A DNA stretch of 63,961 nt, filler included, from Rhabdomonas costata (lineage: Eukaryota), in assembly GCA_019059605.1 (NCBI GenBank). It is 39 parts of 39 records of this genome, joined end to end, with 100 filler letters (N's around TTAATTAATTAA, not from the genome) between each part and the next. Parts side by side here need not be neighbours in the genome. Positions count along the whole stretch, not along the records: positions 24,651 to 26,192 come from JAHMHO010013409.1; positions 26,293 to 27,835 come from JAHMHO010013410.1; 37 more parts are not named here. One strand, given 5' to 3'. Shown in pieces: positions 20,522 through 41,454 of the stretch. The translations under genes were made by a program, and so were the position numbers. Numbering within the stretch: position 1 is the first letter of the stretch; each line of letters opens with the position of its first letter. The notes below the pieces were generated by a model. That model ran no database searches, was not told the DNA's origin, and saw nothing but the letters and a program-made list of their open reading frames with translations.

Positions 20522-20557
<36 letters not shown>

Positions 20558-23847: not shown

Positions 23848-24914
23848 AATACCCTTGTGTGCCTCTTGAGTCCGTAGAACTGATGTTTGCGAAGTTGCAT
23901 TTATGACTTCTGAACACATCTGCCGGTATTTTATGTGGCCTTCTTCCGACTTCAACTCTCGGTGGGACCTTAGAATCCGATGCCTCTATCTATTTTCCCA
24001 AGACTCAACACACACACACACAAACACATACACACACGCACTGGCTTCCCACTCTTTCCCCCATTTCCTCATTCCTCTGCTCGTCACCGGCATTTCATAC
24101 TTCCGGTGGTTCGGAGGCTTTTCTTGTCTTCTCGTTTTCTGCCAGGAATACTCAACCCTGCTTCCTCTGACCGCGGGAGTAGCACCGTGGCTTGGTTCCC
24201 ACGCTCTCCGCGGGATCACCCACTATGGAGTTTTGTTAGATTCTTTCCTGCGCCTTGTATGGCTGCTGCAGGACTCCTCTGGCTCGTGTGCCATGGAGGC
24301 TCCGATTTTTCAATTCGGGGAACTCGACACACACATAGTGCACTTGCCCAAGCCGACTTTTTTCCGGGGAAGACTGGACACACACATACACTTGAGCTGA
24401 CTTTTTGCGAAGACAAAACACATAACCATCTTAACAGGCAAGCTGCAAAAAGCACCCTGCACGGGAGAAACAACGGTTTCACACACACACACACACACAC
24501 ACACAGAGCTGGGTGTGAAGGGAAAACCCAACCCAAACACACCTACCACANNNNNNNNNNNNNNNNNNNNNNNNNNNNNNNNNNNNNNNNNNNNTTAATT
24601 AATTAANNNNNNNNNNNNNNNNNNNNNNNNNNNNNNNNNNNNNNNNNNNNGGTTTTGTGGGTCAGAAAAAATAAAGATTCGGAAGGCAAACTCTGGCGCA
24701 GTCTTAGATTAAGGAATAGCAATCCGATCAAACCACATGTGATGAAAGCTCGTGGATGGATGGGAAGGAAAAATCCATGGAAACATTCATGATACAGTGC
24801 ACCCCAGGAACAGAACACATCTACGTCGTGGCTCCTTTAACCCCCTCCCCAAACCTCCTGTCATCGCTGCTCCTGCTCCGTTGCGGATCCTCTATCAGCC
24901 CCAATCCCAAAAAC

Positions 24915-25224: not shown

Positions 25225-26309
25225 CTCACCGAAGCGCACTCCATCAAAGCTGAGCACGACCTGTCCGCAACAGTGACAGGAAACCGTCCACCCCGAGCCA
25301 AAAAAAAGATGAGAGGGGACGCGAGATGAAGTGCAAATAGCCTATGTACAGAAAAGCAAACAAACTGTTTGATTGTCCGGGACATTTTGCCGCCAACGAC
25401 CAGGAATCATCCTTCGTTCTCCACTCCAAGTCAGGGGCGGAAAAAAAACTTGAACAATGTGTTGAACGACCAGATCGCTACTCTTTCTCAGTTTATAAAA
25501 AACTGCGTGAAGCTGGCGGCAATTCCTGGAACCCTCTATGCAAACCTCAACGTTTGAATGTCCAGTCCCTGTTGATCTGGTTGACCTGCGCCTGCATTTC
25601 CAACAAAAACAATGCCTAGTCTGTCACGGTGGGACAGACACATGAAAAAGAAAAGAGAACGGAAGCCCTGACCTGCCCCAGGGCGTTTGGGTCTGAGGCC
25701 TCCACAGCAGCCCGAGCCAAGAACTCTTCCCGCTCTGGGGGGGTGGGCCGGTGCGAAGTCAGCGCTCACCAGAGAAGTCCCGCACAAACCTCGCCTTTGG
25801 GGAAATGGGAAACCACACAGCAACAAATCCATGGAACGGAGGGAGTTCATGGAGTTCCTGGAGCTACTGGAGTGCATCTGGTGGGGTTGCTTGCACTGCT
25901 GTAGTGGAATTGCTGGCGATCTTTACTGCTTGTCCAAGTGGCCACTCGAGCCAGGCCAACACAGTGGGTAAAAAGTAGCTGAAAGATGTTCAGGGTTTTC
26001 CTCGCCTGGTGCTGAAGACCGAGATACTTGTCACCCACATTATTCCAACAAAATGCTGCGAAAATTACGGATTTTCGAAGGGGAGGACAGCAATACACCT
26101 TCCACTCCCACTCGCAAGTACGCGTCACCTATCAGGGAAAGGAAAGCACGCGCCGAGACGAGACGAAAAATGCTCGCAAATGAACAACAACCNNNNNNNN
26201 NNNNNNNNNNNNNNNNNNNNNNNNNNNNNNNNNNNNTTAATTAATTAANNNNNNNNNNNNNNNNNNNNNNNNNNNNNNNNNNNNNNNNNNNNTGTGTTAG
26301 GTGTGTCTG

Positions 26310-26659
26310 GTTTTGTTGTGTCATTGGTTACAATACATACATCACCTTCATCTACTGTAAGCGCATTTCCTTGTGCTGTAGTGTGAACAGATGCTACAGA
26401 TACTAACAGATGCAACTGTACAATCACTGAGAGATGCAAGAGATGATATTGATGAAACTGATGCATTTATCTATTGTGATAATGTTTGATCATACTGTAA
26501 AACTTGTTTATCAGTTGGATCAGTTAACGCTACATCTGGTGATGATAACGGAACATCTATTTCACCGAATACATCTGTTGGTATTTTATTAATTGAGATT
26601 GATATAACCTTACCAGATGTAGTTACAATAGCATTACCTGATGACAAAAAAGGGTTCAT
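26310..26659 (-). pseudogene. Fibre/tail-like virion protein, interrupted
   Basis: MNPFLSSG...DVALTDPTDKQVLQYDQTLSQ*INAS...LASLSDCTVAS, then frameshifted ALTVDEGDVCIVTND. Resembles the DVxxxxPxxGQVLxYxxxxxxWxN repeat of viral fibres; TAG at 26471-26473 sits where Trp is expected. Confidence 0.5.
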
Positions 26660-26703
26660 ATTATTATAATATATCCGAGATAAAAATCTAATTATATTAT
26701 ATA

Positions 26704-27492
26704 ATGAATTCTCTCTATGTGAATAATACACCTGAATCAAACAAGTATGTAAACTATAGGGGTAGTACGGTAAGAGTACATTTAAACCCCCCTATTGATT
26801 TAGACCCAAAAAAGAAATGGCAACTAAGGGTACTTCAAGCCAATGTTGTTTATTGTCAACCCAACGTAACAAGTTCATATACTGGTTTTTCGTACAAGGT
26901 TAATTGTGTAACATATAATACAACTATACCAGTTGGTGTCTATGGAATAGATGAACTTAATACAACAATAAATCGCATAACAAGCTCACAAAATGGGGCT
27001 CAGCTGTTTAAATTTGCTGGAAATCCCGCAACTTCAAAAACAATTGTGTATTTTAGTCAACCTAACACATATATAAACTGCACTAGTAACTCATTTATGC
27101 AATTATTAGGGTTTGCCAATGATGGAGTACAAATAGGAGGAGTAATAAGTACTAATTTGTCAGTAGAAAGTCCTCAACAGGCAACACTAAACAATCTTCA
27201 ATTGATTTTAGTGAGATGTAATATAACAAGTGGATCATATTTAAATTCAAATCAAAATAATATTATTTGCGGTATACCTGTAGATGTGGCACCATTTAGT
27301 CAAATTCAGCGATCATTTGTTCATCCAACCAGAAATTCTATTTTTGTGAATCGTATTGAAGTTTTAGAAATAACTCTTCTAGATCAAGACGGAAAAGAAC
27401 TTGATTTTAGCCTTGGTGGCACTTACTCTACACCTGAGGGATGGAATTTAACAATGGATGTAACCGAGTACGATCCAAAATCATTATTATGA
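26704..27492 (+). CDS. Minor capsid protein (penton, single jelly-roll) of the Polinton/PLV/adintovirus type
   Basis: Intact 262-aa beta-rich ORF with penton-type motifs in order: LNPPIDL..KWQL, IPVGVYGIDELN..IN, LLGF, ILVRCNITSGSYLN, IEVLEITLLDQDGKELDF. Confidence 0.8.
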   Translation: MNSLYVNNTPESNKYVNYRGSTVRVHLNPPIDLDPKKKWQLRVLQANVVYCQPNVTSSYTGFSYKVNCVTYNTTIPVGVYGIDELNTTINRITSSQNGAQLFKFAGNPATSKTIVYFSQPNTYINCTSNSFMQLLGFANDGVQIGGVISTNLSVESPQQATLNNLQLILVRCNITSGSYLNSNQNNIICGIPVDVAPFSQIQRSFVHPTRNSIFVNRIEVLEITLLDQDGKELDFSLGGTYSTPEGWNLTMDVTEYDPKSLL

Positions 27493-27540
27493 TCATGTGA
27501 TGAAAAAATATAATAATATTATCTGTGATATTATTATATA

Positions 27541-27835
27541 ATGGTTTGTCATGGCACTAACTCAAGAATAAAAGGTAGTGGAGTAATCGAAACGCTACTA
27601 TCACCGTTTACGGTTCGTAAATATGATGAAGAGATGCACACTAGATCACTTGATCCAGGACATTTTTTTTATAGAAAATGACAGCTGGGTGGAGCCGAAA
27701 ACGGAAGTTCGGCTTCGCCAAAAGTTACACGATGATAAACCACTTAATGATCTTGATGAAGCAGCAAAAGAACATGATCTAGCTTATTTACGCGAAAAAG
27801 AAGAATATGAAGAGATCAAGATAAAACAAAACACA
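27541..27835 (+). pseudogene. Parvovirus-type phospholipase A2 domain protein (adintovirus PLA2X-like), frameshifted and cut off by the contig end
   Basis: Removing one T from the T8 run at 27663-27670 joins MVCHGTNSRIKGSG...EEMHTRSLDPGHFF to IENDSWVEPKT...KPLNDLDEAAKEHDLAY (PLA2 PxNxLDxAAxxHDxAY). The Ca-loop GPG position reads EPK. Confidence 0.75.
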
Positions 27836-36146: not shown

Positions 36147-37116
36147 CCGCATCAGTAGGACCACAGTCATTGACCTTCCGGGCAAGGATTGCCCATAGGT
36201 TTTCCAAAGGATTTAGGTCTGGCGATCTTGCAGGCCAATTTTCCAAGGCACGGATGCCCATTCTGGCAAGAAATTCACTTACAACTCCGGCTGTGTGTGC
36301 CCTTGCCCCGTCGTGCATCAGAACTTTGTCCTTCAGGATTTAAAGATTGGCTTTGAGGCATTTATCACGGTAAACCTCGGCATTTACAGTCGTGGTTGGA
36401 AGAACAATAAGCTTCTTCACACCAACTCCAATCAAACCCCAGACGTGAACTTTGGGTGCCCAGCGATCCCTGCCAAGTGGCTCCACTGTCTCTCCAGGCA
36501 TGACCCATTCCCATGCACATCCGTGGTCATTGCAGTCGAAATACTTTTCGTCCGTAAAGAGGAGTGTTTCACAGTCAAGCCCCGATCGGATTTTCTGACA
36601 AAAGTGCAGCCTTTGCCCGATGTCGCCTACTCGGATTCGAGGAGCTTTTGGCCTCCGTCTGGCAATGGCTCCCAGAGACCATAAATCCCGACGGACAGTC
36701 ATTGCAGTAACAGCAATGCCATCCGTACATGCCAATTTCCTGGCAATTGCTGCACAAGACGGGAACACTCGTCTTGTTAATGTCACCGGCCTCGCTTTTG
36801 GTCCTCTGACATTTGAATGCTGGCGCTTGACAGTTACTTTCTGGCCTTGATAACATTTGACTAACTGGCGCCTTTTGCGTATCATAGACTGCATGGACGC
36901 GCTAAGACGAGGAGGGCTCGGACAGTATTGCCTGGATGATGGAGGTAACTTCTTCCTAAGATGGTCTCGAATCGTGCGCCAGTCAACACCTAAACGCTTG
37001 GCAATAAAATTAATGCTTCGCCCCTGGGAGCTCCACTCGTGGGCCAAGAAATATCCTGTATCCGTCATTCTCCCTTTTGGACATCGATAACGAACAGATG
37101 GGCGAACAGCAGGCAT
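36147..37116 (-). mobile_element. IS630-Tc1-mariner transposase, DD35E spacing, one in-frame stop
   Basis: HTH (SINFIAKRLGVDWRTIRDHL), second HTH (AIARKL...TVRRDL), LFTDEK, VHVWG, MHDGARAH and WPARSPDLNPLENLW; 35 residues lie between the second D and the E. TAA at 36340-36342. Confidence 0.92.
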
Positions 37117-37937
37117 TGAAAGGAAAAATCGAGCGTTTTGGGGAACAACACAATCAAAGGACAGTCTGCCCTGAAAAAAGACTACAGGCGCTTCGAAAAA
37201 ATATTGCACGCAGGGAGGGCAACAAGTTTGTGCAGTCTTTTGTCATCAGCACGATCCTTCCTGTCACGCTCAACAATCACAAAACTTGCACCGTAACTTG
37301 AACGACGCTTGGAGCTCCACAGGCACACAACAGTTCCAGGGAGCTTTTTCACAGGACCGCGTCCAGAAGCAATGACACGCCGGGCCAAAAGAACAGCAGT
37401 GTCAATGGCACGATCCTGGGCAGATTTTTTCGCACGCCACCGTCGTGTTCTCTCTGCCCCCGAGGCACCAGTGCCCCACCGCCGCCGCGTTTTTCGAACA
37501 TTGCGGCCGCTGGTATCCTGGCTTCCACACTCAAAAAGAAAGCGCTTTTTAGCCATTATGAAGGAAAATAACTGCACAGAATCTGTCACATACCATCGCA
37601 AAGTACGTTACACCGTAAACTCAGAACTCCACCAAAAGCTGCCCCCAGATTCAAACACGAACTCTATACACCCCAATCCTCAAATATCCTTNNNNNNNNN
37701 NNNNNNNNNNNNNNNNNNNNNNNNNNNNNNNNNNNTTAATTAATTAANNNNNNNNNNNNNNNNNNNNNNNNNNNNNNNNNNNNNNNNNNNNCAAGTTCTT
37801 GTTGTGCCCATCCCTTCCTTCTGGATGTCAGCCTCTGTATCAGTGGGTAAAAATCTTTGTCTTTACACTTTTCTGCAACGGGACCAACATGCTCCCTGCG
37901 TGTGAGAGAGAGGTTTTGGTTTCTGTTGCTACTGCAG

Positions 37938-39433: not shown

Positions 39434-40900
39434 TCAGGGCAAACATGGCGCTGCAGAATTCGTTGGTAGTCGTGACCACAAGTTCAATCTGAACAAAGAA
39501 AAAGAAAACCAGTGAAACAACGTCAACGATATGATCCCGCGCCTCTTGGACCCAAAAAACTCGATTTTCCCTCAAGGACAAGTAAATCGCGGGCCAGGCA
39601 AAAGCACCTTCATGCTCAATGCAAGGAATATATTCCGTGGACGCTTCGCAACCACTGTGAACCCAACCGCATCTCAACAAAATCCAACGCAAAGGGACTG
39701 GGACCCACTTCACACCTCGTGGGAGGACATTGTCGTGGCGAGGACATCCCGGTGCTTCTTGATATCAAGCTCAGTTTGATCCAGGAGTGCGGACCGCGCT
39801 GGGGCCACCGCAGCCCCGGATGCGGCAGGTGGTGGCAAGCTCCGGTTTCTCTCAAAGTGCAACTCCGTAACAGCCTGACACAGGGATGTGAGAGGAACCT
39901 CACAGGAGGGGTACTTCACCATCAGCTGCTGCACGATGTGATGCTGCGTGGCTAAAAGTCCGCACGTCTTCGCGCTTTGCGCGTGGCTCTGCAGTGCATG
40001 CAGGGACAGTAAACTGCCAGTCTTCCACATACTGACGAACACCTCGGGCTTGCAGCGGTGAACTACACGAAAGGTGCTCATCCACTGCGTCACCTCGTCC
40101 ACCACCATAGGCCGTGGCTTGCCATTCTTCTCGAACCACGCTGAGAGTGTGTTCTCCAGGCCCTGGCGGTTCTGAAAAAACAGTGTGCGGATCTCCTTCT
40201 GACCCTCCTTCTCAAACATCTTCACCATAACATTGTGCCCGTACACCGGAGAGGGAGGAATCGAGGGCAGCGGGTGCGCGAACCGCTTGATGTGGTCCAG
40301 GACGTGCCTCTGCAAACATTCGCCCTTGTCCTTGCACAAGGGCCGGATGTCGGGGATGCCCTTGTGGGTGTACGTTGAGAGATGGATCTCAGTGAATGTG
40401 CCACCAGAAAGGTCGCAGTTGTCGCCGAAGAAGCAGTCGTGGCAGATGACATGAATGGACTGCTGTTGGTGCTCCGGAGTTGTGTCTGTGCAGCTTCCTC
40501 CCCAGCTGCAAACGTGGGCCGTTCTACCCAGGTGGCCCTTGTCGTCGCGGGAGCAGTTGAAGGGAGTCTCGGCACATGGCCTTCGAAAGGGGTGGTGGAA
40601 CTCAGCCAAGTGCCGGTTGTCCGAGAAACGCCCGCAGTGGGACCGGAAGTAACACGCCCGCTCTAGATGGCGGAAATTGTGTCCCGGATGCCCGATCATG
40701 GGGCACCTCAACCCCTGAACACAGACAGGGGGGTGAAGAAAGTTCTTTACGTGCATCGGGTCTGCATCGCGAGAGTCCACCTGTGGGCAAGGCAGTGGGT
40801 GCTCAAACCACTTCTGATGCCATGCCCTGGCCATTTCATCGGAAGCCCAGTAGGCGATACACTCTCCCTTTGCAAGGCAGGGGGTTTTGTGGCGGAACAT
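39434..40900 (-). CDS. Protein with tandem PBZ-like (CCHH) zinc fingers followed by a putative ART-like segment (partial)
   Basis: A long exon ends at 39716 (GAG|gtgtga) and the next is 39488-39434. Six C-x5/6-C...H...H units (e.g. CYFRSHCGRFSDNRHLAEFHH, CKDKGECLQRHVLDHIKRFAH) precede VVHRCKPEVFVSMWKTGSLLS. Confidence 0.75.
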
Positions 40901-41454
40901 TCGGCGGTGGACCGAGTCGCTGGGGCACGAACTGACACTCAACTGGCAGGGCGCCGGATGTTCCGCCACAAACCCNNNNNNNNNNNNNNNNNNNNNNNNN
41001 NNNNNNNNNNNNNNNNNNNTTAATTAATTAANNNNNNNNNNNNNNNNNNNNNNNNNNNNNNNNNNNNNNNNNNNNGTGTGGGTGGGGGCACGATTTGTTC
41101 ACACTGTGGTACGCGAGTGTACCAGTGGTTCTGGCTTTTATCCCGAAGTATTGGGGGTTCATGCAAACAAGATCTTGGTCGTTGGCAAAAGATTGCTCAC
41201 CATCGCGCACTGCAACGATCGCATTGCAATTCTAATCGACTAGCAGCGACGGATTCCCATGTACACAGGATGCGCATCTATTGGTGCAGTGGTGCAGCGT
41301 CCAGACGCTGTGACAAACTTTCACCAGCGCACACGGTGCGACGACCATTGCACAACCATCACAGGAGAGGTTGCATACCGGACCAAAGCAAAGAAGATGG
41401 AACACTGGAGTTGCAAACAATATCAGCTGCATACACACACATACACACACACAC

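Follow-up and report, generated by a model that had tools for sequence, protein, structure and literature searches.

A single contig in the genome assembly of Rhabdomonas costata (GCA_019059605.1) carries a cluster of virus-like genes, which raises the question of what kind of virus they come from and whether this copy is integrated in the genome of a cell. The window, i.e., the whole stretch of DNA that was analyzed (63,961 nucleotides, filler included), consists of 39 contigs of 1537–1547 bp each, joined by N44-TTAATTAATTAA-N44 spacers, and the locus at 26293–27835 is exactly one whole contig of 1543 bp. This contig probably represents 1.5 kb of the particle-forming vertex module of a small dsDNA virus of the double-jelly-roll type (the polinton, adintovirus or “MELD virus” kind), present as a recently disabled copy.

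The original prediction had described an AT-rich contig with three tightly packed genes and no junction with host DNA, and the analysis agrees on all three counts. The GC content is 33.4%, compared with a mean of 51.9% (sd 2.7, range 46.9–58.0%) in the other 38 contigs, and thus lies 6.8 sd below them. A fibre-like, a penton and a PLA2-type gene are separated by spacers of 44 and 48 bp (Table 1), and both contig ends fall inside viral genes. Each of the three genes has a TATA-like element adjoining its start codon. When the contig is taken together with four related loci (L001–L004), such an element is found at most 12 nt upstream of 14 out of 14 gene starts, as against 48 of 384 ATGs on both strands. 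This shared arrangement suggests that the three genes are co-regulated late genes. The spacer downstream of the penton gene includes a perfect inverted repeat that may form a hairpin at the transcript end; the corresponding spacers of L001 and L003, which are shorter, showed no counterpart (printed sequences read by eye). Rfam returned no matches over the whole window, and PHROGs gave a single weak match (E 0.019) for the three window proteins. The other contigs show a CpG observed/expected ratio of 0.76; a Pfam search with five of their long ORFs gave one sub-threshold helix-turn-helix (HTH) of the Tc3-transposase type, and a 419-aa ORF had no usable match in the protein atlas.

Table 1. Position of genes, spacers, repeats and lesion sites along the contig (window coordinates).
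Feature	Position	Strand	Remarks
Fibre-like gene, 5′ part	26293..26659	−	Start codon at 26659; runs off the left contig end
Direct repeat (D5), 12 nt	26386–26397 / 26405–26416		Near 26386–26416 the fibre gene switches frame (−1 to −2)
In-frame TAG	26471–26473	−	In fibre gene; Trp in relatives
Spacer, 44 bp	26660..26703		AT-rich; between divergent fibre and penton genes
Penton (vertex capsomer) gene	26704..27492	+	Intact; 262 aa; TGA stop
Spacer, 48 bp			Between penton and PLA2X genes; contains the inverted repeat
Inverted repeat (I3)	27508..27539		Perfect, 12 nt, with 8-nt loop
PLA2X-type gene, 5′ part	27541..27835	+	About 97 codons; runs off the right contig end
T8 run	27663–27670	+	PLA2X gene passes from frame +1 to frame +2

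As judged from its modelled fold, the 262-aa ORF is a real penton, as had been predicted. An AF2 model built from a 108-sequence alignment (pLDDT 95.8, pTM 0.89; an earlier model from 5 sequences, with a pLDDT of 57.3, was set aside) has the fold of a single jelly roll with an added insertion domain, and most of its chain matches solved pentons. Three structural comparisons, the check that the prediction had set in advance, all favor a penton. In VIA-align the 30 best matches among solved structures are without exception pentons, with Z scores of 9.8–14.5 and 137–248 of the 262 residues aligned (at least 209 in 29 of the 30); the match that follows has a Z score of 7.8. Foldseek searches of the PDB also recovered pentons (E 1.4e-9 to 1e-5), with the mavirus penton 6g41 giving the best figure (E 1.4e-9) and adenovirus penton bases, Sputnik and PBCV-1 among the matches. 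The best match in BFVD is a protein of Tetraselmis viridis virus S1 (TVS1; E 1.4e-17, TM 0.65), with giant-virus proteins and adomavirus LO5 also ranking high; adintovirus pentons come in at positions 29 and 42, and the matches include a DUF5901-named protein of Pyramimonas orientalis virus. At the sequence level, the penton family profile shows a weak link to PBCV-1 chain 8h2i_bG (“P1v1”; E 7.2e-4), and the 108-sequence profile is linked to a protein with a match to Pfam DUF5901 (PF19254).

Directly downstream of the penton gene, as the original prediction had it, lies what sequence similarity identifies as the 5′ part of a PLA2X-type gene, in which a parvovirus-type PLA2 is followed in relatives by a weak tail resembling adenovirus pX. 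The PLA2X architecture is characteristic of Alpha adintovirus virion modules (Starrett et al., PMC8502044). The PLA2 family (PF08398) was found in 14 of 14 PLA2X relatives, including the L003 orthologue (28.2 bits, above the 23.9 cut-off); the window piece, cut off and frame-shifted, scores below that cut-off (22.4 bits, E 1.5e-4). The window copy ends before the C-terminus, and the pX-like tail is seen in relatives only: Adeno_PX matches 3 of the 14 at E ≤ 0.01, the best with 20.1 bits and all three below the cut-off of 25. Aligned by tblastn, the L003 protein covers the contig in two frames (E 6e-25; 20/35 residues in frame +1, 29/48 in frame +2). Both the HD catalytic pair and the xGP loop can be aligned with the VP1 unique region of AAV, and the HD pair is kept in the window copy (EHDLAY). 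In contrast to parvovirus VP1, however, the PLA2 of the contig is encoded on its own instead of forming the N-terminal part of a capsid protein, its gene is frame-shifted, and Glu replaces the Gly of the [YFW]xGP loop, which is invariant in 31 of 31 relatives. By analogy with parvoviruses, this Gly would be part of the calcium loop.

For the divergent gene, the original prediction stands as far as the gene itself is concerned, since 4 of 4 related loci keep it upstream of the penton; its identity as a fibre is a lead only. The encoded protein begins with a conserved N-terminal motif, MNPFL, and its reading frame is open as far as the contig end. The L002 fibre aligns with the contig in frame −1 (tblastn, 36/88 residues, E 3e-16), with the contig stop facing a Trp, and residues 155–189 of the L001 protein align in frame −2 (16/35, E 4e-5). 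“GLD..(S/A)KIP”-type repeats are visible in the fibre proteins of L001 and L003. A feature search of the protein atlas points to phage tail fibre, Mtd_N and PTR clusters (scores 0.92–0.94, 136–155 shared features), by which the gene would be a candidate phage-type fibre; the protein has no Pfam match at E ≤ 0.1 and no meaningful PDB sequence match.

The contig comes from an AT-rich lineage that has no name and is found widely across metagenomes. Its relatives are metagenome sequences of 27–32% GC with the same gene order, and PLA2X lies downstream of the penton in all three related loci that reach past the penton. In public metagenomes the penton family comprises 1225 representative clusters at E ≤ 1e-3. 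No source gives the relatives a name beyond “hypothetical protein”; a word search with the 108-sequence profile led to nine proteins, all nameless. No Pfam family covers the penton, and one of the 108 members touches DUF5901. A genome contig collection that was searched for relatives yielded nothing, and IMG/VR gave no match to close pentons, PLA2X sets, a single PLA2X or two distant penton triplets. The lineage is almost absent from IMG/VR, where one distant locus was found (L005, a contig of 7376 bp). Its penton matches the family profile at 20% identity (hhalign E 1.4e-47) and is followed immediately by a PLA2 protein (hhalign E 1.9e-8, probability 95%). Near this pair are a P-loop ATPase ORF (Pox_A32, E 0.007, 16.3 bits, below the 22.8 cut-off) and an ORF of 571 aa in which Capsid_N is faintly suggested (E 0.1); neither has a PDB sequence match, and the 571-aa ORF used as a query in IMG/VR retrieved L005 again and nothing else. 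Beyond these sub-threshold hints, no MCP, ATPase, protease, polymerase or integrase was seen in the lineage loci, the longest of which span 2.3 and 7.4 kb. Within the sources searched, the predicted undescribed lineage is supported.

Together, these data support the reading of the contig as a capsid module of polinton/adintovirus-like type from an undescribed lineage. Like the Alpha (Mayetiola-class) adintovirus/polinton module, the contig has a penton gene beside a PLA2 gene, to which that module joins an adenovirus pX-like C-terminal tail, weakly matched here in relatives; the module likewise consists of compact, intronless genes and occurs as degraded copies in genomes (PMC8502044). The narrower assignment to adintovirus-type Polintons in the original prediction finds no particular support in the penton structure, the best matches of which are the Tetraselmis polinton-like virus (PLV) and adomavirus LO5. 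The penton is no nearer to adintovirus pentons (BFVD E 1.7e-8 and 1.5e-6, TM 0.40–0.47) than to others, the pX match is below the Pfam cut-off, and all relatives are metagenomic, with no known animal link. The TVS1 protein (M4QZG2, 300 aa) is the closest structural counterpart and of similar size, but its identity with the contig penton is just 15%. The pentons of mavirus (6g41/6g42) and Sputnik (3j26_N) and the adenovirus penton base (e.g., 1x9t) share the jelly roll and insertion domain over about 236–248 of the 262 residues (Z 11–12.9), although their identity is 10–14% and the adenovirus protein has about 200 residues more.

In adenovirus, the penton is paired with a fibre that docks through its N-terminus, and pX is a core peptide. 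The 262-aa protein, whose fold comes from the model, would assemble into the pentamers that occupy the five-fold vertices of the capsid. The divergent gene may encode the vertex fibre, the conserved N-terminal tail of which (MNPFL...) probably docks on the penton, while the distal part, variable and phage-fibre-like, would bind the host. The PLA2X protein, as in the rest of its family, is expected to be packaged in the particle, where the PLA2 domain would breach the endosomal membrane on entry and the C-terminal pX-like tail may act as a core or membrane-active peptide. With two of its three genes broken and the penton gene intact, this copy is unable to make these particle parts.

Two other kinds of virus have to be considered as the source of such a module. 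It is very improbable that the piece derives not from a small polinton-like virus but from a giant virus (Nucleocytoviricota) or a giant endogenous viral element. The top VIA-align Z scores do belong to PBCV-1 penton chains (14.5 and 14.2), but PBCV-1, mavirus, Sputnik and adenovirus pentons differ by just 1–3 units and all span the whole protein; similarly, many BFVD matches are giant-virus minor capsid proteins, but the best one is a polinton-like virus. L005, the sole relative in IMG/VR, has been assigned to a giant-virus MAG; however, it is a lone 7.4-kb contig with a morphogenesis set like that of small viruses, and so the assignment may reflect mis-binning. Giant endogenous viral elements have been reported in Euglena gracilis (PMC12455990). 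The pairing of PLA2 with a pX-like protein, by contrast, has been described for adintoviruses (PMC8502044), and the literature found on the PLA2X architecture concerns polintons, adintoviruses and parvoviruses, with none on giant viruses. It is improbable as well that the element belongs to a virophage-like, giant-virus-dependent hyperparasite as opposed to an autonomous polinton-type virus. The solved pentons of mavirus and Sputnik are among the best matches, and with the TATA element abutting the start codon at all 14 gene starts, leaders would be very short. This position is typical of genes read by viral, not nuclear, transcription machinery. Against this, the motif may merely reflect AT-rich spacers, and no virophage-specific gene was seen on the contig or the related loci. 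PLA2 genes are moreover rare in the one survey of polinton-like viruses considered (2,355 PLVs), where a single PLA2-like auxiliary enzyme is mentioned.

The lesions that had been predicted are features of the sequence as assembled, namely one TAG and two frame changes (Table 1). The TAG stands in the fibre gene, the frame change of the same gene lies near a short direct repeat, and the frame of PLA2X changes within a homopolymer, the only one of the three sites of this kind. Two benign explanations were rejected. Reading of TAG as a sense codon is at odds with the Trp of relatives at this site and with the PLA2X gene of L003, which terminates in TAG, so that TAG is a true stop in the lineage; a programmed frameshift in PLA2X is at odds with 31 of 31 relatives, which use one continuous frame. 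No lesion was found in the fibre, penton and PLA2X genes of L001–L004 (about 6.7 kb in total). Partial decay, as originally proposed, stands with respect to the three disabling lesions and the replaced invariant Gly, but there is no general excess of change. The PLA2X piece departs from its relatives at 1 of 24 columns conserved at ≥90%, while the relatives' own range is 0–8. Relative-rate tests, the penton tree and dN/dS likewise gave no excess in the window lineage: in the tests against P0001, the penton has 9–18 unique changes against 13–23 (p 0.18–0.48), the tree gives it a short end branch (0.098), and dN/dS is 0.06–0.38, with dS saturated (0.9–3.3). Decay thus rests on three or four sites of the assembled sequence.

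With two of three genes broken and the penton untouched and no faster-changing, the simplest reading is a recently disabled, integrated copy, which would have been inherited passively in the genome of some cell; on balance we favor such integration. That the carrier was the sequenced organism itself is somewhat doubtful. The GC content, 6.8 sd off and near that of the metagenomic relatives, together with the lack of any 14-mer shared with the other 38 contigs, makes the contig look foreign to the assembly; a euglenid spliced-leader motif had no match in the window, which is uninformative. A free, non-integrated virus, or a virus-carrying contaminant of the culture or library, is rather unlikely, and the lesions would then be assembly or sequencing errors, or a defective genome assembled by chance. 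The composition, the viral genes at both contig ends and the intact penton with no faster change are in line with such an origin, the T8 run is a classic error site, and adintovirus-like sequences in some organismal datasets are environmental in origin (Starrett et al., PMC8502044). However, two of the three lesions are outside homopolymers (the TAG for Trp and the frame change at the 9–10-nt repeat region), the four related loci, from other assemblies, have the same genes free of lesions, and the consensus assembly of a replicating virus would be expected to show working genes. A low GC content relative to the host, moreover, has been reported as common among integrated polinton-like elements (PMC10120064).

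Taken alone, the finding of part of a polinton-like virus in a fragmented assembly is nothing unusual. This lineage, though, pairs its penton with a PLA2X gene so far described for animal adintoviruses. Adintovirus virion and accessory genes have been reported as apparently restricted to animals, except for the MELD viruses, whose Alpha-adintovirus-like virion proteins were found in Capsaspora, Monosiga and Trichoplax datasets (PMC8502044). It is a bold and so far unlikely proposition that the contig represents an undescribed, widespread, AT-rich PLV clade combining a small penton, an adintovirus-type PLA2X and a phage-like fibre, with one member having become endogenous in a protist outside the animals, perhaps a euglenid. 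If true, this would extend PLA2X-bearing polinton-type elements for the first time beyond animals and their closest unicellular relatives. Integration in the sequenced organism would mean a small-virus insertion in a group where the surveys found describe only insertions of giant viruses. If the hosts of the clade are protists, membrane-breaching PLA2 entry proteins would be older and more widely distributed among polinton-type viruses than has been reported.

The window consists of 39 contigs of 1537-1547 bp, separated by N44-TTAATTAATTAA-N44 spacers, and is not a single locus. One of these contigs, 1543 bp long, can be assigned securely to the vertex part of a virion module (fibre, penton and PLA2X, a gene type that joins a parvovirus-type PLA2 domain to an adenovirus pX-like C-terminus) of a small polinton/adintovirus/MELD-type dsDNA virus whose lineage is AT-rich and unnamed. 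The analysis covered this contig and its relatives in public collections. The original prediction of three tightly packed genes on an AT-rich contig is borne out by the ORF layout and the short spacers, and by a GC content of 33.4%, compared with 46.9-58.0% in the other 38 contigs (mean 51.9, sd 2.7), which places the contig 6.8 sd under their mean. No 14-mer is common to this contig and any of the other 38. Those contigs, of about 50% GC, show a CpG observed/expected ratio of 0.76 and include several (CA)n microsatellites, a 289-aa ORF that matches a Tc3-type transposase HTH below threshold (E 6.5e-6) and a 419-aa ORF without a Pfam or protein-atlas match.

Positions of the features discussed, along the whole window unless a locus is named
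Feature	Position	Strand	Remark
Window contig	26293-27835		exactly one contig
12-nt direct repeat	26386-26416		near fibre frame change
In-frame TAG, fibre gene	26471-26473		Trp in L001, L002 and L003
Fibre N-terminal motif	26645-26659	minus	L001 near 599, L002 near 387, L003 near 583, L004 near 202
Fibre-like gene	start 26659, off left contig end	minus	N-terminus MNPFL...
Fibre-penton spacer			44 bp
TATA-like element	within 26692-26703		
Penton ORF	26704-27492	plus	intact, 262 aa
Penton-PLA2X spacer			48 bp, contains the inverted repeat
Perfect 12-nt inverted repeat	27508-27519 / 27528-27539		8-nt loop, between penton stop and PLA2X start
TATA-like element	within 27529-27540		
PLA2X-type gene	start 27541, off right contig end	plus	
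T8 run	27663-27670		contains PLA2X frame switch
(CA)n microsatellites	1661-1696, 20525-20554, 24480-24505		examples
289-aa ORF	36340-37209	minus	
419-aa ORF	39710-40969	minus	
L005 PLA2 protein	2571-3839 of L005		motif twice
L005 ORF8, 98 aa	6782-7078 of L005		motif once

The 262-aa ORF has no usable match in Pfam or PHROGs. A word-based search recovers four close homologues (58-74% identity), and an exhaustive profile search yields a large family, with 1225 representatives at E <= 1e-3, of which 330 reach <= 1e-10 and 24 reach <= 1e-30; most of its proteins are 250-290 aa long. The AlphaFold2 model, built on a 108-sequence alignment, reaches a pLDDT of 95.8 and a pTM of 0.89; a model built on 5 sequences (pLDDT 57.3) was set aside. 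Among solved structures, Foldseek ranks the mavirus penton at the top (6g41/6g42, E 1.4e-9), followed by adenovirus penton bases, the Sputnik penton and a PBCV-1 capsid chain. The best 30 rows of VIA-align are pentons without exception (Z of 14.5 for PBCV-1, 12.9 for mavirus, 12.3 for Sputnik, 10.5-12.1 for adenoviruses and 9.8 for EhV-201) and cover 209-248 of the 262 residues in 29 rows and 137 in one short PBCV-1 chain; below them come one row with Z 7.8 and then unrelated folds at <= 5.6. The best match among predicted viral structures is a Tetraselmis viridis virus S1 protein (E 1.4e-17, TM 0.65), with adomavirus LO5 proteins and many giant-virus minor capsid proteins in second rank, and adintovirus and "MELD virus" pentons lower (E 1e-8 to 1e-6). 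Against sequences, the family profile finds the PBCV-1 chain 8h2i_bG (E 7.2e-4) and a DUF5901-bearing protein (E 1.5e-14). The ORF is thus a penton, as had been proposed; the lack of any penton match that would have spoken against this did not occur.

The gene directly 3' of the penton is, judged by its domain matches, of PLA2X type. The window piece matches PF08398, the parvovirus-type PLA2 family, slightly below the cut-off (E 1.5e-4, 22.4 bits against 23.9), while its full-length orthologue of 232 aa in L003, a related metagenome locus, exceeds it (28.2 bits) and gives a match to Adeno_PX below the cut-off of 25 (E 6e-4, 20.1 bits). The 43 relatives found are exclusively metagenomic; PF08398 was matched in 14 of the 14 scanned, in agreement with the parvovirus-type PLA2 originally called here, and Adeno_PX in three, each time below its cut-off. 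The PLA2 region can be aligned to AAV VP1u over the xGP loop and the HD pair. The combination of PLA2 and a pX-like C-terminus, named PLA2X, is described in parts of Starrett et al. (2021; PMC8502044) as typical of the virion modules of Alpha (Mayetiola-class) adintoviruses, and the L003 orthologue appears to have the same arrangement, its pX match being sub-threshold. The abstract of that paper describes adintovirus-like virion and accessory genes as apparently confined to animals. The term also occurs, most likely in the viral sense, in an adomavirus preprint and a leafhopper-microbiota preprint; a genome-map legend in Yutin et al. (2013; PMC3671162) includes a PLA2 domain, the maps taking in insect genome fragments (T. 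castaneum, A. pisum), and in a marine survey that covers 2,355 polinton-like viruses, a passage on their auxiliary genes names just one PLA2-like enzyme.

A scan of JGI metagenome contigs revealed four related loci (L001-L004), with pentons 52-77% identical to that of the window. Upstream of the penton, each of the four has a divergent gene that shares one N-terminal motif (MNPFL, MASPFL, MANPFL), and the three that reach past the penton have a downstream PLA2X-type gene. Their GC content is 27-32%, so that AT-richness belongs to the lineage as a whole. A tree of 31 pentons places the window sequence with L002 and its sister P0001 (support 100/100) within a well-supported clade of ten. The sources name these relatives as "hypothetical protein" at most, in keeping with the undescribed lineage that had been suggested.

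The upstream gene is indeed divergent and kept in all four loci; its proposed fibre identity is a lead. Neither Pfam nor PDB sequences gave a match. A language-model feature search with the L001 protein points to phage Mtd_N, PTR and tail-fibre clusters (0.92-0.94, which the tool itself grades as a lead), and the L001 and L003 proteins contain "GLD..(S/A)KIP"-type repeat units. All five proteins begin with (M)(N/A)(N/S)PFL, with P, F and L invariant, and beyond this motif are merely 29-52% identical. The motif is reminiscent of the tail by which the adenovirus fibre is attached to the penton base, and a constant N-terminus in an otherwise variable fibre would fit a putative docking on the penton.

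A TATA-like element (e.g. TATTATATA) abuts the start codon at all 14 starts of the three genes in the window contig and L001-L004, against a background of 48 of 384 ATGs (both strands counted), and may be a lineage-specific, almost leaderless late-promoter or initiator motif. By eye, it is not evident in the upstream sequences of the distant locus L005. The inverted repeat may represent a transcript-end hairpin; in L001 and L003, where this spacer is shorter, no counterpart was seen by eye.

L005, the only relative from IMG/VR scans, is a lone contig of 7376 bp whose label assigns it to a giant-virus MAG. Its penton aligns to the family profile with E 1.4e-47 at 20% identity (hhalign), and the gene directly 3' encodes a protein of 423 aa with a PLA2X homologue as its N-terminal part (hhalign probability 95%, E 1.9e-8; PF08398 E 4e-4, below cut-off). 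The pairing of penton and PLA2 is thus an old trait of the family. The neighbouring genes are suggestive of a small-virus morphogenesis set and are, in order, a P-loop ORF of 222 aa that matches Pox_A32 below threshold (E 0.007), a Bro-N protein (E 2.7e-29) and an ORF of 571 aa in which Capsid_N is faintly hinted at (E 0.1). L005 has the look of a small polinton-like virus that ended up in a giant-virus bin. The motif G-L-(N/K)-P-S-G-G recurs in its PLA2 protein and ORF8; in adenovirus core proteins, Gly-Gly motifs of this sort are sites of adenain-type processing.

The fibre gene of the window is read in frame -1 and, past an in-frame TAG, its likeness to relatives persists in the same frame; then likeness to the L001 C-terminal region continues in frame -2 up to the contig end. 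TAG serves as a genuine stop codon, since the L003 PLA2X gene terminates in it. PLA2X changes from frame +1 to +2 after about 41 codons, in contrast to the single uninterrupted frame of 31 of 31 full-length relatives, and its [YFW]xGP loop has Glu in place of a Gly invariant in those 31. The same three genes are lesion-free in L001-L004. Because just one of the three lesions sits in a homopolymer, most are probably real rather than errors. The partial decay originally proposed holds for the stop, the two frame changes and the Gly-to-Glu change, and does not extend to broad decay: PLA2X differs at one of 24 columns >=90% conserved, the loop Gly (relatives, 0-8), and the penton has 9-18 unique changes versus 13-23 in P0001 (five outgroups, p 0.18-0.48). 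The end branch of the window penton is short (0.098), and dN/dS across the clade is 0.06-0.38, with dS saturated.

The copy is probably a recently disabled, passively inherited one, integrated in some cell genome; this is favoured because working genes would be expected in a consensus assembled from a replicating virus. That the genome is that of the sequenced organism is a more tentative proposition, somewhat short of even. A free or contaminant virus is a slightly less likely source again. The contig does resemble the free relatives in composition and is distant from the other contigs, and parts of PMC8502044 document environmental carry-over of adintovirus-like viruses into organismal datasets; however, integrated polinton-like elements often differ from their hosts in GC, according to sections of PMC10120064. 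There is a slim chance that the contig is a giant-virus fragment or a virophage-like element.

As to the host of an integrated copy, "Euglen" does not occur in the main text of PMC10120064, a large survey of protists, and the one Euglena paper found deals with giant-virus insertions (PMC12455990); the supplementary tables of both may bear on the host. A fragment so short and unanchored cannot bear the claim of an endogenous element in a euglenid. What it does reveal is a large, unnamed lineage, nearly missing from IMG/VR, in which the penton is paired with an adintovirus-type PLA2X, and which merits a survey.
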